DNA of 64,000 nt from Escherichia coli (GTDB taxonomy: Bacteria; Pseudomonadota; Gammaproteobacteria; Enterobacterales; Enterobacteriaceae), in assembly GCF_050320075.1 (NCBI RefSeq), contig NZ_CP190018.1; one strand, given 5' to 3'. This document shows positions 257-40,934 of the stretch, one piece after another. The notes under the pieces were generated by a model. The model did not search any database. It had not been told where the DNA came from and saw nothing but the letters and a program-made list of their open reading frames with translations. How positions within the stretch are numbered: position 1 is the first letter of the stretch; each line of letters begins with the position of its first letter. The translations under genes and the position numbers were made by a program.

Positions 257-1177
257 TTACGCCAGAACCCTCTCTAGCTTATTCACCGCCGCCACATACT
301 TCGCCGGATTTTTATCTTTAAGCACCGCCAGATTGCGTTGCTTCCAGCGAATAGCCGGAAGATGCTGAATTTCAGGATAGCGATACCGCGACCAGTCAGG
401 GCTGTTTTGCTTAAAACTGAGCAAGAACTCGCGATCCAGATCCGTAAGATGTGACTTCAACGCCTGCGGCAGCAAAGTCGTTACTGACAGAAGCGATTCC
501 AGCGACGTTTCCTGTTGCGTCATCCCTGAAAATTCCTGCGCGTACAACGTGGCGATCCGCTCTGTATCCCAGTTTGGAGCCAGCAACTCGGCGATGGGGC
601 GGGGATGGCCTGCCAGATAACAAAGAAAACCGTCAAAGATCTCCCGCATCAGTCCCGGTTTCTCCAGCATATTCAGCACATCAAACAGATCGCGCGGGTG
701 CTGACGATCAAGCGCAGCGCAGATTTTACCGCCATAAAGATCCGCCAGCGAGACGACACTCATGGTGGTGAAGCCATACTCCATTTCCACACGTTCGCAC
801 ACAGGCATTTCTGCCGGAGGCAACAACAGCCCGCGCCAGACCGGGCTAACCTCGATCTTAATCTTTGCATCAGCGGTATTCACAATGATGCGCTTTTCAT
901 CCGCTTTATTTTCCTGCCGAATCGCGGTGATCCCCGGTCTGCCGTTCAGCGATGCAGTAATCCTCTTCAAAGCGTCGTTGATAGCCGCCAAATCAGTATC
1001 GCGATCCGCAAAGCTCTTGTACGCCAGATCAATATCCACCGACAGACGGGGAAAATCCTGCACAAACAAATTGATTGCGGTGCCGCCTTTCAACGCGAAA
1101 CAGGACTCCTTCGCCACATACGGCAGAGCGGCCATCAACAGTTTGACCTGCCGGGCATAGCTATCACGCAGATCCAT
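257..1177 (-). CDS. abiEii: AbiEii-like nucleotidyltransferase toxin (type IV TA / abortive infection)
   Basis: 306-aa ORF; N-terminal 'KGGTAINLF...DIDL' nucleotidyltransferase-type motif typical of AbiEii/DUF1814; 14-nt overlap with upstream partner gene. Confidence 0.65.
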   Translation of the reverse strand: MDLRDSYARQVKLLMAALPYVAKESCFALKGGTAINLFVQDFPRLSVDIDLAYKSFADRDTDLAAINDALKRITASLNGRPGITAIRQENKADEKRIIVNTADAKIKIEVSPVWRGLLLPPAEMPVCERVEMEYGFTTMSVVSLADLYGGKICAALDRQHPRDLFDVLNMLEKPGLMREIFDGFLCYLAGHPRPIAELLAPNWDTERIATLYAQEFSGMTQQETSLESLLSVTTLLPQALKSHLTDLDREFLLSFKQNSPDWSRYRYPEIQHLPAIRWKQRNLAVLKDKNPAKYVAAVNKLERVLA

Positions 1178-1967
1178 CTTCGACTCCTTCCGGTTTAAAT
1201 GCGCGTGGAACAGTAATTTGATAATCCGGCTCCAGCCAGCCGCCGGGTATGATTTGCCGCTTTCCCGTACCTGTTTCTATACCGCTTTGATCAATATACT
1301 GAAAATAAGGGTGTCCATTACGCCGGGCAAGGTAAAGCATCACCCGGTTGGTTTTAACCGAATGGCTGGCGCGAAGCAGTGCCTGCAATTTGCGTGGGCT
1401 GAGAAGATTCAACCCCTGAAACAGAGCATCGGCATGTTCGAACGAGATTAACGAAGGAACGCCGCAGGCGATCTCATACGCGGCCAGTTCCGGAACACTG
1501 CCTGCTAACTGGCGGTCGCCAATTTTCAGTTCCGTAGTAAATGGCGTTACATCAGCGGTAAGGCCTGACGTATACAGCGTGACAAACGTTGCGGATTGTT
1601 CAAAGGCAGAAAACCATCCCGGCAGTTTGACGTAAGCCGGAAGCGCGAGCCAGACCTGCGGCTTACCCTGTTCGGTATAGTGCGCATGACCCTGAAGCGC
1701 AAGGCTGGTTAGCCCCGCCACCCGAACAGGCTTTTCCCACTGCGATTGCAGGCAGTAAACCGCATCCACCCAATCCGGTTCACGACCCGTCCGGCAGTAT
1801 ACGCCGTGAGCGATCCGCCTGAGCCAGCCATTCTTCACATAGAGATAAGAGAGCTTACGATCTATGCCGTTGCGGGTAAGCCATGACTGGAGCAGCACCT
1901 GGCCGGGTAGCGTGTGCTGCATCAGCCAGTTTAGATAGTTTGGCAACTGTCGCCTCTGAATAGACAT
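1164..1967 (-). CDS. abiEi: AbiEi-like antitoxin/transcriptional regulator
   Basis: 267-aa ORF immediately upstream of and overlapping abiEii; size and operon position typical of AbiEi; assignment rests mainly on context. Confidence 0.5.
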   Translation of the reverse strand: MSIQRRQLPNYLNWLMQHTLPGQVLLQSWLTRNGIDRKLSYLYVKNGWLRRIAHGVYCRTGREPDWVDAVYCLQSQWEKPVRVAGLTSLALQGHAHYTEQGKPQVWLALPAYVKLPGWFSAFEQSATFVTLYTSGLTADVTPFTTELKIGDRQLAGSVPELAAYEIACGVPSLISFEHADALFQGLNLLSPRKLQALLRASHSVKTNRVMLYLARRNGHPYFQYIDQSGIETGTGKRQIIPGGWLEPDYQITVPRAFKPEGVEDGSA

Positions 1968-2261
1968 TAGTACAAATATTTAAACCAGTGTAGATTCAGG
2001 GATACGCCACAGCAAGAAATAGTTTACTTATTCCTCATTTTGTCGACTAAAAATCGACATTAAACAAAAAATTCAAACTTAATCACTTTCGGGAAAAATG
2101 TGACAAATATATGCTCGGACTGGTTGCGGGGAGCGTGTAACATGGATACAAATCAAAATTATTGCCAGCCTCACTGATGGATTACTGGTGTCAAGAGCCC
2201 CCCTTCGGGCATGAAACGGCTGGCTAATTCTGTACAGACTGTAATCTAAGGACGATAACGC

Positions 2262-5200
2262 ATGACATATCAGGCAATTTTCACTGGCTGGGATGATCTG
2301 ACGATTGAAGACCTTCTGGTCGCTTACCGGAAAGCAAAAGCCGATAGCTTCTTTGAGAATACATTTCCTGTTGCTATCAAATTTGCCGAGTATGAGCAGG
2401 AATTACTTGAAAACCTGCAAAAACTCTTAGATCTTTTGCAGAGCGAAGATGGATTCAGTAGCAATAAGAAGTTGATTGGCAAATTTCGATTGTTACCGAA
2501 AAAATTAACCACAAAGAAAAAACATGAATCCCAAAATGGACACGTCCACTTTTCTAATCCTAAACGAGCAGCCGACCATTTATTTAATAATTTTGATCTG
2601 ATACCAGAGTTTCGTATTATTGGTGACTTCCCGGTTGATAGTCACATTATCTCTGCACTATGGATTAACATGGTCGGGCATAAATTTGATGCCAGCTTAG
2701 ATAACTGTTGCTATGGCGCGCGGCTAAAGCGTATTCGTAATGATGAATTATTTAGCAATGAGCAGGATAATCCATTCCATATCAGTGCCGTGGGTTCTTT
2801 TAGCCCCTACTTCCAGCCCTACCAAAAATGGCGTGGTGATGGCTTAAAAGCTATACGTGACGAGTTGGAAAAAGATCGTGACATTATCGCCGCCTCACTG
2901 GATTTAAAAAGTTACTATCATTTTATTGATCCACTGGCTATAACCTCTGATGATCTCTATAACACACTAAACATAAAACTGACTGAGGATGAAAAAGCGT
3001 TTACTGCACAGTTAGCAGTATTCTTAAAGCACTGGTCTGACGGCGCAGCGGCATTTGGAAAGAAAATAGCGTACAAAACACCTGTTATTAATGGTGGTCT
3101 GGTCATTGGATTAACAGCCAGTCGGATCATTTCAAATATATTGCTACACCATTGGGATAAATTAGTCATTGAAAAACTATCACCAATTCACTACGGTCGT
3201 TATGTCGATGATATGTTCCTTGTAATACGCGATACAGGGACAATTACTAATAATCACGAATTTATGTTATTGCTGCAAGATAGGCTTGGCAATGATTGCG
3301 TTTATTTGAAAAACGAGCAAAAACAAATATGGCAAATACAGCAGGGCGAGCATTTCCAGGGTAAGACCACCATCCAGTTACAATCCGATAAGCAAAAACT
3401 TTTCGTGCTTCAAGGGAGGGCTGGAATAGACCTGCTCGACAGTATCGAAAAGGAGATCTACGAGCTTTCTAGTGAACACCGCTTGATGCCTTCACCGGAT
3501 CAACTGGAACACTCCACCGCAGCTAAAGTCCTTTCCGCTGCCGGTAGTGTAGGTGAAAATGCCGATACTCTGCGCCGTGCGGATGGATTAACCATTCGTC
3601 GTTTGGGCTGGTCACTGCAATTACGCTACGTTGAAACACTGGCACGAGATCTGCCTCCAAGTGAATGGAAAGAACAGCGGGAAGAGTTTTATCAGTTTGC
3701 CTACAACCATATTCTTAGGGCTGATAATCTATTTGCACATTTTAGTTATCTGCCAAGGCTGCTTGGCTTTGCTATCAGTATGAATGAATGGCAGCACGCG
3801 GAAAAAATTGTACTTAAAGCTTACGAATCCATCAACCTGTTGGCATCGGTGATTACTTCAGGTAAGGAAGTGAATATAAATGGTTGCAAAACTCGAGCAG
3901 TAAATGATCTTTGGCGCTGTATAAAAGGCACATTAAGCTGGCTATTTGTTGATGCAGCGACACGATATTACAGTCCTGACAGATTATTTCTTGATAAACG
4001 TTCAAAGAAAGAAGAGTGCCTTGCGGATACATTTTTTAATCATATTTCACAAAGTCTGACGAATCTAAAGGATTTACTGGATCTTCGCTTTGATTCAGCA
4101 GATTTTTATTTAAAAGCGCCATTGGTAGCTCGAGCTGATTTAGCAAAGGAACCTTATAAACAGATCGTAAAGAGTCAGTCGGCAGAAAAACTTGTTAATC
4201 AGCGTGATAGTAAAAAAGAAGTTAAAATACTGAAATTAATGAGCGACTCATCGCTTATTGATATTGACGTTATTAAGCTATTTTTGAAATCAACCAAGAA
4301 TACCCGACTGGAAAAAGTGGCTAAAGGAAATCGTAAGAACGAAAGTTACCTACCTTACATTTTCCCTACACGTCCTTTAACACCCGCTGAAATATCAGAA
4401 CTGGCCCCCGAATGTGTTGGATTACCCTCCACATCCGACAAAAAACCAGATGAGAGACCGTCCACCATTTGGGCAAAATATACTCAAGCATTACGCGGAG
4501 TATGGATCAAACCGACGTTGCTAGCATCGGAGCAGGACTCAGATGAAGCGACAAAAAAAGCTCGGCCTAAGAAATTCATTCATATTGGCACAGACAGGAA
4601 ACATAAAGTTGTCGTTGCGCTAACCAGCATTAAAACAGAGGAGGACGACTGGGCTAAAATGGCCTGCAATAAATCTAACTTGTCCCGTTCAAGGTACCAG
4701 CGGATTTCTGAACTGGTTAATGCAACATTGAAACTATCTCCTAAACCTGATTATGTTTTATTCCCTGAGCTTTCAATCCCGTTACGCTGGGTTAACAGTA
4801 TTGCTGATCGTTTGAGTTCGGCGGGTATCAGTCTAATTGCGGGAACAGAATACCGCCACTTAGACGATAATCAACTGAAGAGTGAGGCCGTACTTGTCCT
4901 TTCAGATAACAGACTCGGCTATCCAGCGAGTGTCAAAATATGGCAACCCAAGCTGGAACCCGCCGTAGGTGAAGATGAGGCATTATTTTCAATTTATGGT
5001 AAGTCTTGGGATTCGACACTTAATGTTAAACAACGTAAGCCGGTATATATTCATCACGGCGTCAATTTTGGCGTTATGATTTGCTCTGAACTCCAGAATA
5101 GTAAAGCGAGGATCCGTTTTCAGGGCGCACTCGATGCATTAATGGTATTGAGCTGGAATAAAGATCTAGATACGTTTGCATCGTTGATTGAATCAGCAGC

Positions 5201-5471
5201 GCTGGATATTCATGCCTATACTATTTTAGTGAATAACCGAAAATACGGCGATAGTCGCGTACGTTCCCCGGCAAAAGAACCCTTTATGCGTGATATTGCT
5301 CGTGTGAAGGGCGGTGATAATGACTTTGTGGTCGCTGCAACGCTGGATATCGACTCGTTAAGGGCATTTCAGAGCAGGGCAAAACGCTGGCCTAAAGGCG
5401 GCGATAAATTCAAACCGTTACCTGAAGGATTCCAGTTGGCAAAGAACCGCAAAAAGCTACCGCCAAAATAA
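2262..5471 (+). CDS. Reverse transcriptase-nitrilase fusion protein (defence-associated RT, DRT type 1 / UG1-like)
   Basis: 1069-aa ORF; RT motifs A 'SLDLKSYYHF' (aa ~211-220), B 'NGGLVIGLTASRIISNILL' (aa ~277-295), C 'YVDD' (aa 314-317, nt 3201-3212); C-terminal carbon-nitrogen hydrolase signature 'FPELSIP' (E836) and 'GVMICSE' (C941); divergent from AbiE pair. Confidence 0.7.
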   Translation: MTYQAIFTGWDDLTIEDLLVAYRKAKADSFFENTFPVAIKFAEYEQELLENLQKLLDLLQSEDGFSSNKKLIGKFRLLPKKLTTKKKHESQNGHVHFSNPKRAADHLFNNFDLIPEFRIIGDFPVDSHIISALWINMVGHKFDASLDNCCYGARLKRIRNDELFSNEQDNPFHISAVGSFSPYFQPYQKWRGDGLKAIRDELEKDRDIIAASLDLKSYYHFIDPLAITSDDLYNTLNIKLTEDEKAFTAQLAVFLKHWSDGAAAFGKKIAYKTPVINGGLVIGLTASRIISNILLHHWDKLVIEKLSPIHYGRYVDDMFLVIRDTGTITNNHEFMLLLQDRLGNDCVYLKNEQKQIWQIQQGEHFQGKTTIQLQSDKQKLFVLQGRAGIDLLDSIEKEIYELSSEHRLMPSPDQLEHSTAAKVLSAAGSVGENADTLRRADGLTIRRLGWSLQLRYVETLARDLPPSEWKEQREEFYQFAYNHILRADNLFAHFSYLPRLLGFAISMNEWQHAEKIVLKAYESINLLASVITSGKEVNINGCKTRAVNDLWRCIKGTLSWLFVDAATRYYSPDRLFLDKRSKKEECLADTFFNHISQSLTNLKDLLDLRFDSADFYLKAPLVARADLAKEPYKQIVKSQSAEKLVNQRDSKKEVKILKLMSDSSLIDIDVIKLFLKSTKNTRLEKVAKGNRKNESYLPYIFPTRPLTPAEISELAPECVGLPSTSDKKPDERPSTIWAKYTQALRGVWIKPTLLASEQDSDEATKKARPKKFIHIGTDRKHKVVVALTSIKTEEDDWAKMACNKSNLSRSRYQRISELVNATLKLSPKPDYVLFPELSIPLRWVNSIADRLSSAGISLIAGTEYRHLDDNQLKSEAVLVLSDNRLGYPASVKIWQPKLEPAVGEDEALFSIYGKSWDSTLNVKQRKPVYIHHGVNFGVMICSELQNSKARIRFQGALDALMVLSWNKDLDTFASLIESAALDIHAYTILVNNRKYGDSRVRSPAKEPFMRDIARVKGGDNDFVVAATLDIDSLRAFQSRAKRWPKGGDKFKPLPEGFQLAKNRKKLPPK

Positions 5472-19013: not shown

Positions 19014-20929
19014 CCTGCCTTGGTGTATGTCCAGTTAAATGTTGTTGTTCCCTGGCTTGTGATGGTTACAATCCTTCCTGTCACTGTAAATGATATCAAC
19101 CCTCCTGACTTAAGCGGAGTTAAAGTAAGTGTTGTTCCGTCCCACATGGCAAGCTGAAGCGAAGAGAAATTTGTTCCACTGCTTTCTGCCCAAACGCTTA
19201 TCAGGTACATCCCTTGGCTATTTGGCAGTTCAAACAACGTAGTTGCTACGTTAGCTGCAACAGCCTGAGTTCCTTTCGCTGTGTACACTGCTGGCAACTG
19301 ATTACCTGCAGAGCTTCGTGATTCAACATATGAGCCTGAAGTTTGCGTCCCAGTTAATGAGCAGTCAGTAAATACTCCATTCCCTGTGCTGTAAGTTGAT
19401 ATTACAGGAGTCCCACCAGTCGGAGCCTTAAACCGGCATCCCTCAGCAATTATTTTTGCTGTTGAGTCTGTCAGCAATGTGTTTGGGTATCCAGAGCCAG
19501 TGTAGGTTATTGATTCGCTATCAAGGAAGCTATCGGTACTTGATTTTATGTTAACAATGCTTGTGCCTGTTGCAAAGATAAATGCTGCTGTCCCACTCCC
19601 CGTTGTTTGCATTGAGTTTCCATGCCCGGCCAATCCTGATATATGGGCAATAGTATCATTAAGTTTTATATACGACGCAGTAATTCCATTTGTATTTTTT
19701 ATTATATTAGACTCACCATCATACCCTGTAATAGTAAGACACTTACATCCAGAAAAATATAACCCTGAGGAATCAAATGTATATTGCGACCCGTCAACTG
19801 TGATCTGGTCTCCTGCACAGTTTATTAGCTGAGGAGACAGGCAATTTACAACATACCATGCCTGTGCTGCATCCAGCACATAACATGTATCCCACTGTAT
19901 TGTCGTTCCGTTCGCCTTATAGAAACCATGCGCAACTCTCCTCGCCCATACCTGGGTATACTTTGTTAGGTAATTTCCAGAGTCATCATATATGGCCCAC
20001 CATGCACCATCAACCTCAACATTTTTAATGTGCATAACGCCTGGTGAAGTAGTTCCTCCATCAATTAGAATGCCAATTTTACCATCATTGCCAGTAGGTG
20101 ATGTAGGGCGTCCTCCATCGTAAAAAATATAGACATTTTCAATATTTATTGTATTAAACGCTGCGTGGTAATGGAAACAAGCTATATTTCCTATTACTGC
20201 TATGAAAGTTTCCGGCCTATTTATGTTGCTGTTTGTTTCGCCATTTATTGTGCAGTTTGAATTCATCTCTATCGTTGCATTTACGAAGTAAGTTCCAGAT
20301 GTCAATAATACATTCCGCCCTGTATTAATTGCGGCCTGTATGCCTGCATAGTCAAGAGACTGAGTTAGTGATGTTACGAATGGATAAACAGCCTGCGCCG
20401 CTGATAGTGTGGAGAATTTCTCGCTGAGTGGATGCAGAGTTCCGTCAGCTGTTGCACCGAAATCCTTGGCTGAAATGAAGTTGGTATTTTTATCATGTTG
20501 AGTTAAAGCTATTGAGCCGATATATGGCTGCTTAACTGCAACTAGTGCATCTCCCATTCCATCAGCATCGCTTTCTAACTGCTGCTTAAACTGATCAGGG
20601 TCATACTTCAGCACATTAGGAAAATAGAACTGCTGTGCACCATACGCATCATATACAGCCATAGAATGGCCTTGCACAGTTACGAACTTGGCAATCTGTC
20701 CGTTATATACAGGGTAACCAGCGGCGTTAATGATGATTGGTTGCGAAACAGGAACGTGAGAGCCGTCTTCGTTCTCTACATAAACCTGAATCTGGTTTTC
20801 TGGATTTACTGGGTCCGTGTCAATTTTACCGATATAAATTTTGCCATTGGCAACCGCTTTAAAAGAACGCGCCATAGTGAAGAGTTGCGAAGGCATGCTT
20901 ACCACAACATTTGCGGTGATATCTGACAT
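19010..20929 (-). CDS. Tailspike protein (P22 gp9-like head-binding domain, divergent receptor-binding domain)
   Basis: From internal Met: '[43 protein letters not shown]...VTVQGHSMA' matches P22 tailspike N-terminus; remainder differs. Confidence 0.8.
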
Positions 20930-21050
20930 TTCATTGCTCCAGACGAATGATATGATGCAACCATGATGTGATTGCATACCGAAATGGTACTATTGAGTAT
21001 TTATCCAGTAGGTTACGATGCCATTCCACCCAACTGGTGAGGCATCAAGG

Positions 21051-21311
21051 ATGTACAGCAAATACGACGAGGCGCAGTTTCACTTGAGACTTCCGCATGA
21101 ACTCCACGCGAAAATTAAGCAGCGTGCGAAGATGAATAACAGGTCGCTGAACTCAGAGATAATTGCAGCGATTGAGGAATCATTGGATAAACAAAGCTCT
21201 GCATCAGTTTACATTGACGATGCAGAGCGTATGGCAGAACAACAATCTGATATGGTTAAGAAAATTGTCTTTGATACGCTCAAGAAGCTATATAAAAAAG
21301 ACAGCAGATAA
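21051..21311 (+). CDS. mnt: Mnt-like ribbon-helix-helix repressor
   Basis: N-terminal Arc/Mnt RHH 'FHLRLPHELHAKIKQRAKMNNRSLNSEI', C-terminal 'AERMAEQQSDMVKKIVFDTLKKLYKK' matches P22 Mnt tail; antisense to late operon between gp16-like and tailspike. Confidence 0.7.
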   Translation: MYSKYDEAQFHLRLPHELHAKIKQRAKMNNRSLNSEIIAAIEESLDKQSSASVYIDDAERMAEQQSDMVKKIVFDTLKKLYKKDSR

Positions 21312-21400
21312 CCATCCGTTACGGAGGATTTATGCACAGAGATATGCTGAATATTGCGTTCTACATATTTGGTTTTTGCACGTTCCTGGTGTTTGCGAAG

Positions 21401-23794
21401 CTATTCTGACAGCGCATCAGACTTAGCCCCCTGAGTCAGGGCGTTAATGGCCTTTTGTGCCTGCTGCATGGCTTTCTCGAACGCTGTTGATCCGCGTGGG
21501 GTGTTTGCCATTCGGAGCATTGCATTTCTGAATGGCTCGCTCTCATAGGCGCGAGTAAGAAGTCCGTAGCTTACCGCTGCGCCAGTTGTCGCAGGGTTCA
21601 TTGCTGTCCCATATCCGATAATGAACGGGATGGTTTGCTGCCCTGTTGGTGTTGTTACTGCCGCTTTTGCAGCCTGCTGCGTGGATTGCAGGTAGTTTTT
21701 CAATCCTTTCAGATAAGCGGCTTCCTGACCTTTAAATGTGATGCCAGTCTGGTTTTGCAGGATGTTAAGCTGTCGAAGGAACTGGTCAGGGGAACCACCT
21801 GATTTCTCCATCGCCTTTCCAATGATGCCATTGCGCATTTGCGCCCTGCCAACACGACCAACTGAGTTATACAGCGTCTTAATTTCCGATTTGTTCTTGC
21901 TGAATAGCATGTTGTTGACAACTTCCGGCGTCAGGTCGCCTTTCATGAGAACATTCTTCAGCCTGGTATTCTTTAGTTTCGCCGCTTCGTCAGCGTAGAC
22001 GGCATTGGCCTGCTGATATTTACGGAGAGTATCGTTGCCAAGATTCTGACCAATGGCACCATTGATATCGTCGGTCATTGCCTTGTAAACGCGCTGAATG
22101 GCAGCATCGGAACGGTTTGGTAACACTGGTCGCTCCCCCTTCACGTCCATTCTGAACTGGCTGCGCAGATCGCTTAATTGCTTCAAATCCAGATTTACCG
22201 GACCATCAGGACCAGCATTGCGAACAAGCTCATCACGATAGGACTGAAGTTTTGAAATAGTCTCGTTATCAGCAACCTTACCAAGCTTCTGCAGGTTAGA
22301 TATTTCTGTATCAATCTGCTGAATTGCTCTTGCAGGCTGAATGTTTATTCCCGCCATAGCATTCTGAACCTGCTCCAGTCGATTTCCTGCAGCGCGACGA
22401 ATTCCTGATGTTTTCGCTTTAAGGCTGTCAATAACAACCGCTGGATCATACTCACCGAATTTATCAGCAAATCTCTGCACCAACTGGCTTCTCGCTTCCT
22501 GTTGCGTTGCTCTCATTCCGCTTGTGCCAGCCAGAGGGATATTTTCTGCTGTAGTCTGCGCCATTTTTCCGACGCGGGAAGTTGGTTGTAACAGGTCTGT
22601 GGTGTGCAGAGGAACTCCTTCACGCTCTGCAAATCTGATAGCCTGCTGCGCTTCTGGCGCGATAGCACCACGAACGCCACGATAAGCAGCACCTAACCCA
22701 CGTCCGGCAGCGTTAATAGCACCGCCAGTAAGTACACCAACGCCTAAATCGGTGGCGAGTGCTTCCGCATCATCTTTCGCACTATTTGCAGCAAGTGATC
22801 CAACTGCGTTTTCTGCGAGAAGTCGTGTTGCCCCCTGAGCAATTCGACCAGCAAGTGTTGGTGCCTGTGCCGCCGCTCTCTCAACGCCAGCAGGAGTGAG
22901 GTAAGGCAATGATTCAGCAAATACCCTTCCCTCTGTCGTTTGTGGAGTCAGCGCGCCTTGCTGAAGGCCAAAGTCCTGCTCTAATCCCTGCGTTGTTACT
23001 CGTGGCGCTGGTTGATATGTCCCATCGCCAATGCCGAGTTTACCTCCAGCCCAAGCCGCCGCGCTTGTTACAGCATCAGTGAGTTCAGCAGGTATGTTCG
23101 CTACGTTGATTCCTGCCTGTAGTAAGCCGCGCCCGGTTTCAGCAAGTCCATTACCAAGGTCAGACATTATTCCGCCTTGCTGCTGAACAGGTTTCGGTGC
23201 GACAGAACTTACGGGTTGAGGTGGCTGCTGACTGGCTGCCTGCTGCTCAATCTGAGCAAATGGATTATTTGGGTCTGACTGCACGCCTGATGCCGATACT
23301 TGTTCGGATGACTGTGCTTCCAGTTGTGCAAACGGGTTGTTAGGGTCTTGCTGAGGATGTACCTTTGCAGAGGTGGCGCGCTGTTCGACTGTTGAGTCTG
23401 TCACCGGGTCACCCGCCCATTGAGCAAAGCGATCATCAACGTAACCGCGGCCTTCAGGTCCTGGCGTATATTCACCACGCTTTGCCTTCATAACGTTGCC
23501 GGGACCGTCGTGATAAGCCTGAAGAGCGTCACGCCAGTTACCAAACTGCTGGTACATCTTTGCCAGATAGCGCGCGCCAGCGTCAGCCTGATATTCGGGG
23601 TTTTGCATTTGCTCATCGGTATAACCCATATCACGCCATGTCCCAGGCATGACCTGAGTCAATCCTACAGCCCCGGCGGAGCTTACTGCGGCAGGGTTGT
23701 AAGAAGACTCCTTGGCACCCAGTGCAGTCATCAACCCTTCTGGCACACCGTAACGTGCGCCAGCCTGCTCTAACAAATCACGGTAATTAGCCAT
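21401..23794 (-). CDS. Ejection/internal virion protein (P22 gp16 position) with N-terminal lytic transglycosylase domain
   Basis: 797 aa; SLT signature 'AKESSYNPAAVSSAGAVGLTQVMP...YLAKMYQQFGNW'; gene order. Confidence 0.7.
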   Translation of the reverse strand: MANYRDLLEQAGARYGVPEGLMTALGAKESSYNPAAVSSAGAVGLTQVMPGTWRDMGYTDEQMQNPEYQADAGARYLAKMYQQFGNWRDALQAYHDGPGNVMKAKRGEYTPGPEGRGYVDDRFAQWAGDPVTDSTVEQRATSAKVHPQQDPNNPFAQLEAQSSEQVSASGVQSDPNNPFAQIEQQAASQQPPQPVSSVAPKPVQQQGGIMSDLGNGLAETGRGLLQAGINVANIPAELTDAVTSAAAWAGGKLGIGDGTYQPAPRVTTQGLEQDFGLQQGALTPQTTEGRVFAESLPYLTPAGVERAAAQAPTLAGRIAQGATRLLAENAVGSLAANSAKDDAEALATDLGVGVLTGGAINAAGRGLGAAYRGVRGAIAPEAQQAIRFAEREGVPLHTTDLLQPTSRVGKMAQTTAENIPLAGTSGMRATQQEARSQLVQRFADKFGEYDPAVVIDSLKAKTSGIRRAAGNRLEQVQNAMAGINIQPARAIQQIDTEISNLQKLGKVADNETISKLQSYRDELVRNAGPDGPVNLDLKQLSDLRSQFRMDVKGERPVLPNRSDAAIQRVYKAMTDDINGAIGQNLGNDTLRKYQQANAVYADEAAKLKNTRLKNVLMKGDLTPEVVNNMLFSKNKSEIKTLYNSVGRVGRAQMRNGIIGKAMEKSGGSPDQFLRQLNILQNQTGITFKGQEAAYLKGLKNYLQSTQQAAKAAVTTPTGQQTIPFIIGYGTAMNPATTGAAVSYGLLTRAYESEPFRNAMLRMANTPRGSTAFEKAMQQAQKAINALTQGAKSDALSE

Positions 23795-39925: not shown

Positions 39926-40212
39926 GACTTAATCTTCCCCTCCTTCAGCAGTATCGCCTGCGTCCTGATAACGCCTTCGAGGTGGTAAAGTCTGGTGTCT
40001 TTGTTGTCGAGGTTATGGGTGCGTCGGTCGATTTCATCGTGACACGCGCTACAAGCCCATGCGCCGATCAGGTCGTCAGGCTTCATTCCCGTTCCGCAAA
40101 TTCCAGCCATCCGGTAATGTGCCAGAACTGTAGTTTCAGGATTGCCATTGCATATGCCGTAAATACGTACCTGGCATTCTCTGCCGCGCGCTTCTTTGCG
40201 TAGATTAGCCAT
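39922..40212 (-). CDS. DUF1364/YbcO-like Cys-rich nin-region protein (putative nuclease)
   Basis: 96 aa with multiple Cys/His 'CQVRIYGICNG...CSACHDE'. Confidence 0.55.
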   Translation of the reverse strand: MANLRKEARGRECQVRIYGICNGNPETTVLAHYRMAGICGTGMKPDDLIGAWACSACHDEIDRRTHNLDNKDTRLYHLEGVIRTQAILLKEGKIKS

Positions 40213-40934
40213 TAAGCAGCCTCACCTGTTACTTTCAGCATTCCGTTATCGAGCAGCTTTCTGGTCAGCCACTGTTGACCACGCCCGGTGATTTTTGTGG
40301 TGAACGATATCTGTATTCCGTGATTTGTGTTGACCGCTGTTTCTTTCACTGTGAAATAGCCGCGATCCATATATTCCTGCATTGGCACATTGCGCCGGGA
40401 ACCTGAAGCAATAAGGATTTTGTGATCGCGCATCCACGCAAACAGTTTGTTTGGACCAATACCGACAACTTTTGCAAAGTTTCCAATCAAAATTCCGCTG
40501 GCCTCGCCAACGCGATCGGCAAACTCAACTTTAGGTGCGGCAATTGCGAGCTGGTTTTCCAGTTGCATTTTCTGCTCAGCAAGATCAGCAGCAAGGCGCA
40601 ACGCTTCTGGTAGCGTTTTGGGGATATTAACCGCAGCTTCTTCAAGCTCTCGCCAACGGTCAACAAGGCGAGCGGTGAACTCTGGCGACAACTGGGCAAC
40701 AACGACAATACTATCTCGCTTACCTTGTTCGCCTTCGAAGACGTAATGCTCGTACTGAACATTGAACCCTAAGTTATTGATTCTTTCGAAAACCTCAATT
40801 TGAGGAAGCCGGATAACACCATTTTTAGCCAGCGTTTCGATGGTACGCTTCACATTGTCATGACGCTTACCAACCAACTCAGCGATTTCAATGCTTGTCA
40901 TTTTGATGGCATTGCCATTTATTAACTCATTCAT
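40212..40934 (-). CDS. Rha-family phage regulatory/antirepressor-like protein
   Basis: 240 aa; N-terminal 'MTSIEIAELVGKRHDNVKRTIETL' Rha-type motif. Confidence 0.6.
   Translation of the reverse strand: MNELINGNAIKMTSIEIAELVGKRHDNVKRTIETLAKNGVIRLPQIEVFERINNLGFNVQYEHYVFEGEQGKRDSIVVVAQLSPEFTARLVDRWRELEEAAVNIPKTLPEALRLAADLAEQKMQLENQLAIAAPKVEFADRVGEASGILIGNFAKVVGIGPNKLFAWMRDHKILIASGSRRNVPMQEYMDRGYFTVKETAVNTNHGIQISFTTKITGRGQQWLTRKLLDNGMLKVTGEAA

Follow-up and report, generated by a model that had tools for sequence, protein, structure and literature searches.

In phage P22 and its relatives, the interval between gene 16 and the tailspike gene is known as the 'ant moron', of which ten types were distinguished among sixteen genomes (Villafane 2008; PMC2629481). 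P22 itself carries the immI genes mnt, arc, ant and sar in this slot. In the same survey ST64T, ST104 and Para1 had only mnt and one unknown gene, and Sf6 had no mnt (PMC2629481). The authors of the phage L genome remarked that its mnt might have taken on a different role or be a relic; a lone mnt, as in phages L, ST64T and ST104, is thus an arrangement already described and is not new. Here we analyse the ant moron of a P22-like (Lederbergvirus) prophage within a stretch of 64,000 nucleotides of Escherichia coli DNA (contig NZ_CP190018.1; 'the window' denotes this whole stretch), in which an mnt-like gene is followed by a 25-codon open reading frame (ORF). We propose, with a probability of about 0.55, that the two constitute a cassette consisting of an Mnt-family repressor and a micro-protein that would exclude superinfecting phages.

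The window resembles P22 immI in the fold and domain order of its Mnt protein (a ribbon–helix–helix domain followed by a tetramerization helix), in the slot and orientation of the gene, and in a colinear control region. It differs from P22 in having no arc, ant, sar or recognizable O_arc, in the change of three of four DNA-contact residues, in the replacement of the operator O_mnt (AGGTCCAC-G-GTGGACCT) by CATACC-GAAAT-GGTAC, and in that the side corresponding to P_ant faces the tailspike gene directly. The ant morons with mnt alone (L, ST64T, ST104, Sf101 and IME10) share with it the MYSKYDEAQFHLRL... N terminus of the protein, the palindrome and a distance of ~120–135 bp from the tailspike start. 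The window takes the reduction further than these. Compared with the L/ST64T type it has a P22-like rather than an L-type C-terminal tail, is without orf62 (an ant fragment) and places mnt directly upstream of the micro-protein gene. Its exact layout recurs in phage IME10, where it is unannotated, and in Sf101, where it is mislabelled as 'partition protein ATPase'; ~138 of 5,426 complete E. coli genomes also have it, as do most of 80 IMG/VR loci.

Two described exclusion systems are pertinent to the second gene. P22 SieA, a prophage-expressed inner-membrane protein of ~160 residues with three transmembrane segments and an FnRYPnEAnnFNK motif, is encoded next to the end of gene 16, at the same locus and on the same strand as the micro-protein gene, and P22 escape from it requires the gp16 substitutions G532W and P546S (Leavitt 2024). 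STnc6030, a highly expressed 786-nt transcript of the Salmonella prophage BTP1, is antisense to the tailspike gene's 5' end and the 3' end of gp16 (Owen 2020, Microb Genom; PMC7067206). Supplied on a plasmid, it confers total immunity to BTP1 and none to P22, and the titre that arises from spontaneous prophage induction is unchanged by the clone; four single-nucleotide polymorphisms (SNPs) that permit escape, all of them non-synonymous, lie within 36 bp of gp16, and a coding role was dismissed on the ground that no ORF exceeds 60 residues (PMC7067206). Further afield, HK97 gp15, TP-J34 Ltp and Tuc2009 Sie2009 are small membrane proteins, expressed from prophages and encoded by morons within late or structural operons, that block DNA entry (PMC10883804). 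They share this concept with the peptide proposed here but are unrelated to it and much larger, and belong to long-tailed phages with tape-measure targets.

A micro-protein gene and its possible link to superinfection exclusion

The micro-protein gene (21323–21409, plus strand) consists of a GGAGG Shine–Dalgarno (SD) sequence at 21323–27, ending 4 nt before the ATG, and a 25-codon ORF at 21332–21409 that encodes MHRDMLNIAFYIFGFCTFLVFAKLF, with one predicted membrane-spanning stretch. A first-pass annotation, made from the sequence alone, had already pointed to this hydrophobic ORF and its strong SD, and both stand. The ORF starts 20 nt past the mnt stop codon (21309–21311) and overlaps by 9 nt the convergent 3' end of the gene for a gp16-like DNA-ejection protein (21401–23794, minus strand; 797 residues with an N-terminal SLT domain in Pfam), whose C-terminal 200 residues align without gaps with BTP1 gp16. 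The stop codon of the latter gene (21401–21403) is separated from that of mnt by 89 bp, in agreement with the initial estimate of ~90 bp.

Of 77 loci, 76 have the ORF unbroken, and so do all but one of the 102 loci whose gp16 end is of the L/Sf6 type. Five kinds of upstream neighbourhood are seen: the gene may follow mnt, a lipoprotein gene or orf62, diverge from a lipoprotein gene, or stand alone. The SD ends 4 nt ahead of the ATG in all of them, and stand-alone copies show a −10 element, TTATAAT or TTATGAT, ~20 nt upstream and a GGAGG SD. In Sf6 the ~90-bp segment is present without mnt, and the homology begins at the ATG, as it also does in comparison with VSe13. The 25-residue and 23-residue forms are separated by an in-frame 9-nt indel. 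Nei–Gojobori (NG86) counts over codons 2–19 in eight lineages gave proportions of synonymous and non-synonymous differences (pS and pN) of 0.81 and 0.23 in the frame of the ORF, hence a pN/pS of 0.29, whereas the two alternative frames gave ratios of 0.81 and 1.77; for single pairs the ratio fell to 0.06–0.1 (Fisher p as low as 4e-7). The ORF thus combines purifying selection specific to its frame with in-frame indels and a conserved start codon behind an SD, and it very probably encodes a protein. Nor does it merely belong to mnt, being a conserved gene in its own right that is also present in phages without mnt (Sf6 and BTP1). A weak hairpin before the ORF that would sequester the SD was discarded as an element, not being conserved in relatives.

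The members of the family have 23–26 residues, with the consensus M-x-R-D-[LMT]-[LIM]-N-x-[AV]-F-[YL]-I-F-G-..., and comprise a polar N terminus followed by 17–19 uncharged residues, a stretch whose length fits one membrane span and hence a single-pass membrane peptide. They are encoded in 315 of the 5,426 complete E. coli genomes (~6%) and, unannotated, in phages L, ST64T, ST104, SPN9CC, g341c, MG40, BTP1 and HF4s and Klebsiella phage phiKp_30, as well as in Sf6. No match was found in Pfam, NCBIfam or PHROGs, nor by exact look-up among 15 billion proteins, and a full-text literature search for the peptide sequence returned no paper mentioning it.

In Sf6-type phages (Sf6 itself, positions 2129–2223, and three further loci, L172, L174 and L175), the micro-protein gene alone makes up the whole 'moron'. 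A long hairpin (GCAATxCCGGACA...TGTCCGGxATTGC) lies upstream of it; the stem differs in L172 and L174, and the pairing may be preserved. In another locus (L152, ~4455–4580), the usual slot of the micro-protein is occupied by a different small hydrophobic ORF (MIYFIGVFAVALILVPC...) after a GGAGG, beside a divergent gp16-like C-terminal match, which hints that the end of gene 16 repeatedly hosts small membrane peptides.

With the coordinates and primers of PMC7067206, a homologous ORF encoding MERDLLNFVFLIFGLVVGKLLFA maps to BTP1 chromosomal positions 404321–404253, inside STnc6030 (403942–404727), which also contains the gp16 3' end and has the same strand and position as the gene in the window; the cloned fragment contains the micro-protein ORF together with its own −10 element and SD. 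The BTP1 peptide has 23 residues against 25 in the window, at ~45% identity. STnc6030 is made by the prophage, and exclusion by it has been demonstrated. The published account treats it as non-coding, an antisense RNA; mnt is missing from BTP1, and the promoter of STnc6030 lies inside the tailspike gene and is not conserved in the window.

The SNPs that escape STnc6030 fall in residues 583–595 of the 655 of BTP1 gp16. In a local alignment, G532 of P22 gp16 corresponds to BTP1 residue 576 and P546 to residue 589, and because these SieA-escape sites align at or near the STnc6030-escape window, one short gp16 segment is struck by both sets of escapes. Its equivalent in the window, by the same alignment with the BTP1 sites and with P546, is residues 725–737 of the gp16-like protein, IIGYGTAMNPATT (21584–21622, minus strand), which may have the same role. 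Since the BTP1 homologue lies inside a cloned fragment that excludes BTP1 without affecting induction, the peptide could itself be a superinfection-exclusion factor, for which we would give nearly even odds. A block to entry acting on gp16 would also explain why induction is unaffected, a puzzle left open by the BTP1 authors. More tentatively, at somewhat less than an even chance, the peptide family may be the real effector of the exclusion ascribed to the STnc6030 'antisense RNA', acting from the inner membrane to block injection through the gp16 segment that SieA targets, and placed here under an autoregulated repressor of the Mnt type.

Among the sampled loci, the micro-protein (100 loci) and the SieA motif (14 loci) never occur together, and the micro-protein is found only with an L/Sf6-type gp16. 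SieA and the peptide have in common their position and strand beside the end of gene 16, escapes in the aligned gp16 segment and, as predicted for the micro-protein, expression from the prophage as a membrane protein. The peptide is not a member of the SieA family, having 25 residues here (23–26 in relatives), one hydrophobic stretch rather than three, no sequence similarity and a different gp16 type, with the SieA motif absent from every micro-protein locus. A VSe13 protein labelled 'hypothetical 161 aa' was considered as a SieA and set aside as a lipoprotein without the motif.

The Mnt-like repressor and its control region

The mnt-like gene (21051–21311, plus strand) encodes 86 residues, with an N-terminal ribbon–helix–helix domain and a C-terminal tetramerization coiled coil of the P22 Mnt type, both supported by sequence and structure alignment and together placing the protein in the Mnt family. 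Pfam identifies the Arc ribbon–helix–helix domain (PF03869, 7.5e-15, 54.9 bits against a cutoff of 20.4) and Repressor_Mnt (PF11423, 8.9e-15, 54.5 bits against 20.9). The P22 Mnt structures are aligned as well (1MNT over residues 3–75 with E 7.6e-19, 1QEY with E 4.4e-08), and identity to P22 Mnt is 49% by tblastn. The ORF is unbroken in ~165 related loci, and that the gene is real seems to us practically beyond doubt. An alternative start offered by the ORF finder, the ATG at 21018, was rejected, being out of frame or followed by a stop in relatives (L093 and L145–L156). P22 Mnt residues R2, H6, N8 and R10, which we take from classical work on Arc and Mnt to be the DNA contacts, align to Y5, Q9, H11 and R13, so that three of the four are changed.

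A tblastn search of the whole window with Arc, Ant, SieA and orf59a of P22 and with another Arc/Ant pair, that of strain NC22, matched the Mnt gene only, and an Rfam scan of 19.5–22.5 kb found neither sar nor a match of any other kind. These results, with the Pfam and structural matches, bear out what the first-pass annotation had proposed, namely a Mnt homologue antisense between the gp16-like gene and the tailspike gene, with no arc or ant following. It had further asked whether immI is reduced to mnt alone or whether Mnt now regulates something else, a question already present in the literature (PMC2629481); of its two halves, a simple immI leftover is disfavoured here. In strain NC22, a tailspike-adjacent mnt stands alongside a separate set of mnt (a pseudogene), arc and an antirepressor gene 2.4 kb away, and the same two-repressor spacing occurs in at least 15 IMG/VR loci; because the mnt of this type coexists with such a set and keeps its own palindrome, it is not simply what remained of immI. 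What is new is that the Mnt adjacent to the tailspike appears, from sequence comparison, to be a distinct lineage with changed contacts and its own conserved operator-like palindrome. The lineage always adjoins the tailspike gene (L, ST64T, Sf101 and IME10), and the window shows the features of the L/ST64T type: the MYSKYDEAQFHLRL N terminus, the palindrome 74–77 nt upstream and a tailspike divergence of 120–137 bp. The classical immI set of NC22 (L088, 5944–6070) has two 21-bp palindromes of its own between arc and the truncated mnt (ATGACATCA-CCA-TGATGTCAT and a degenerate copy), which amount to a third type of operator in this moron slot.

Among relatives, the N-terminal domain and the control region are constant, whereas the C-terminal tail has been exchanged and comes in three types, one P22-like, one L-like and one other. 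Similarity to three of the loci (L004, L087 and L088) breaks inside mnt at ~21140–21190, which points to recombination in the linker. The gene also contains a perfect 10-bp inverted repeat at 21196–21228 (GCTCTGCATC...GATGCAGAGC; −20 kcal/mol, z −5.5), confined to the linker of the window type (SSASVYIDDAER), where other loci have PSPVxGYRDxxER. As a functional RNA element this hairpin was rejected on account of that restriction and of variants without compensatory changes; its left arm resembles the conserved DAER codons copied in reverse complement, the outcome expected of a templated mutation.

The tailspike gene (19010–20929, minus strand; P22-type head-binding domain, Pfam Head_binding 1.9e-67) diverges from mnt. 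Its start codon is at 20929–20927, not 20930, and the divergent intergenic region therefore measures 121 bp. Within this region (20930–21050), which the first-pass annotation had singled out as a place to look for Mnt operators, one conserved palindrome lies at 20975–20990, CATACC-GAAAT-GGTAC, with the core TACC-N5-GGTA at 20977–20989. Across an alignment of 104 distinct upstream regions the pattern [AG]TACC-N5-GGTA[CT] is kept, single-base variants being rare, and the most divergent set has the perfect palindrome GTACC-TAAAC-GGTAC. It is followed by ATTG and then by a TTACGATGCC block, both almost invariant, and the flank on the tailspike side exists in several unrelated versions. The pattern is present once per locus, 74–77 nt before the mnt ATG, in 159 of 166 loci, with only two matches away from mnt upstream regions in ~1.28 Mb of related loci. 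It is unique within the window, where a second copy was sought, including near the Rha/KilAC gene of the nin region, and not found; nor does P22 O_mnt (AGGTCCACGGTGGACCT) have a match in the window within 3 mismatches. Palindrome and promoter block are colinear with O_mnt, P_ant and P_mnt of P22, CTCAATAG/ATTGAG being common to both, and the 4-5-4 geometry of the palindrome resembles that of O_arc (TAGA-N5-TCTA). On reading the sequence, we found no O_arc-like palindrome between the candidate promoter hexamers; no O_arc pattern search was made. On this evidence, the palindrome at 20975–20990 is likely to be the operator of the Mnt-like protein.

A putative P_mnt-like promoter and leader extend over 20993–21042 on the plus strand (TTGAGT at 20993–98, TACGAT at 21014–19 and an SD, GGTGAGG, at 21036–42), with hexamer positions that parallel those of P22 P_mnt (TTGAGA-17-TATCAT). 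Because promoter and terminator scans gave nothing above shuffle expectation, the promoters are assigned here solely by their colinearity with P22.

Between the operator and the tailspike ribosome-binding site, ~25 nt upstream of the tailspike start, a 23-bp near-palindrome spans 20955–20977 (ATGCAACCA-TGATG-TGATTGCAT). On the minus strand it would fold with −11.3 kcal/mol (z −3.1), and among loci of the window type its arms are conserved, perfectly paired in some, and its centre is variable. It is probably a hairpin in the tailspike 5' leader. Unrelated hairpins occupy the same position in P22/L-type and Sf6-type phages, which suggests a structural role in the leader of the tailspike mRNA, for example in processing or stability.

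A model of the cassette and its rivals

In the model that we favour, the cassette, antisense within the minus-strand late operon, would be expressed from the prophage. The Mnt-like protein would bind the palindrome at 20975–20990, in this way regulating the promoter of its own gene and shutting off a vestigial promoter of the P_ant type that points directly at the tailspike gene, this divergent mnt/tailspike control region being its only probable target in this prophage. Transcription from P_mnt would pass through mnt and then the micro-protein gene 20 nt on; co-transcription is probable, and neither a terminator scan nor folding detected a convincing terminator between the two genes. Through its operator, Mnt would set both its own level and that of the peptide, which would insert in the inner membrane and block injection by P22-like phages whose gp16 is of the cognate type; in acting on the C-terminal segment of this protein it would be a functional analogue of SieA.

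Several observations weigh against this model. The association of the micro-protein with one gp16 type arises in part from the physical overlap of the two genes and from non-independent sampling. The escape SNPs, 180–215 nt past the stop codon of the peptide, lie opposite the annotated 3' end of STnc6030, to which that region is complementary, and that all four are non-synonymous is not significant alone. Among the close relatives of the window, pN/pS is only 0.4–0.5, the strong signal of selection coming from more divergent lineages. On the side of the repressor, the promoter hexamers are weak, their spacer is 15 bp in the window type against 17 bp in the L type, a consensus scan of the region does not call the P_mnt-like promoter, and survival of the promoter directed at the tailspike is uncertain.

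The RNA itself might carry the exclusion, with a transcript of the prophage, antisense to the 3' end of gp16, pairing with the incoming late mRNA, in which case the peptide would be kept for some other reason or role. This is the published account of STnc6030, in keeping with the clustering of the escape SNPs opposite its annotated 3' end and with the immunity of P22, which has no nucleotide similarity there, to exclusion (PMC7067206), and a 2025 review still lists STnc6030 as an antisense RNA. We nevertheless regard it as rather unlikely. An RNA that targets the mRNA should lower the titre of the induced prophage, yet over-expression leaves it intact; single SNPs would have to defeat hundreds of nucleotides of perfect complementarity; and every escape alters gp16 residues in the segment where SieA escapes fall. 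Moreover, coding was ruled out only by the 60-residue limit, yet the ORF is under selection at the protein level, and the antisense promoter inside the BTP1 tailspike gene is one that the window does not conserve. A further possibility, which appears less likely again, is a membrane peptide with a different job unconnected with exclusion, for instance that of a type I toxin kept silent by late transcripts of the opposite strand, or of a factor that modulates a membrane protein of the host. In size and hydrophobicity the micro-protein resembles toxins of the Ibs, ShoB and TisB types and small regulators such as AcrZ and MgtS, and antisense late transcripts do overlap its gene. Unlike type I toxin genes, however, the stand-alone copies have short leaders, with the −10 element ~20 nt from the ATG and an exposed SD, and neither a long structured leader nor a dedicated antisense small RNA gene; there is no Rfam match, and toxicity is unreported despite high expression in BTP1 lysogens. 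Any other job would also have to accommodate the tight coupling to one gp16 type and the absence of sieA from all sampled loci with the micro-protein.

Two other readings concern the repressor. An orphan Mnt might act in trans, repressing an antirepressor gene of the nin region or the ant gene of superinfecting phages that have the same operator, and so protecting the resident repressor. The Mnt of a P22 prophage represses the ant gene of an incoming phage, and the window does encode, outside the ant moron, an antirepressor-like protein with Rha (PF09669) and ANT/KilAC (PF03374) domains (40212–40934, minus strand), a gene elsewhere in the prophage by which the role of Mnt might have been explained. 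The operator, however, is nowhere else in the window, this gene included, so that the gene does not account for that role; its pattern is nearly absent from other parts of the related loci, and no inspected locus has it before arc or ant, the arc/ant sets carrying different palindromes; we judge action in trans improbable. Least credible, and disfavoured, is the view that mnt has lost its function and is a relic of immI in decay, with the small ORF as a reading frame arisen by chance. The absence of arc and ant and the weak promoter hexamers would fit, and the phage L authors entertained a remnant, but conservation of the palindrome, the Mnt ORF and the N-terminal domain extends over ~165 loci and several host genera while flanks and C-terminal tail are exchanged, and the small ORF passes the frame-specific tests of selection.

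The lone Mnt, a known curiosity, gains from this analysis a candidate operator and evidence for a separate repressor lineage beside the tailspike. The micro-protein is the more valuable half, an undescribed and widespread family missed by every annotation pipeline and protein database searched. If the peptide is indeed the exclusion effector, the published antisense-RNA mechanism would have to be re-interpreted, gp16 would be the common target of two unrelated exclusion proteins, and the peptide would be the smallest known superinfection-exclusion protein.

Neighbouring genes

Downstream of the tailspike gene, on the same strand, a gene with an Acyl_transf_3 domain, likely an O-antigen acetylase (17886–19010, minus strand), begins at the final base of the tailspike stop codon (19010–19012). 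To be expressed in a lysogen, it would depend on a promoter within the tailspike gene or upstream of it. In BTP1, where multiple transcription start sites have been reported inside the tailspike gene, adjacent coordinates indicate that gtrC may be similarly placed just past it.

To the left of the prophage (257–5471) lie genes for an AbiEii toxin, an AbiEi antitoxin and a 1069-residue reverse transcriptase, named from the RefSeq annotation of their matches in strain SB0258h1, a strain that matches an 801-bp probe from the window at 100% identity. In the interval from this AbiE/reverse transcriptase cluster to the tailspike gene, some 8.6 kb of the window are missing from SB0258h1.

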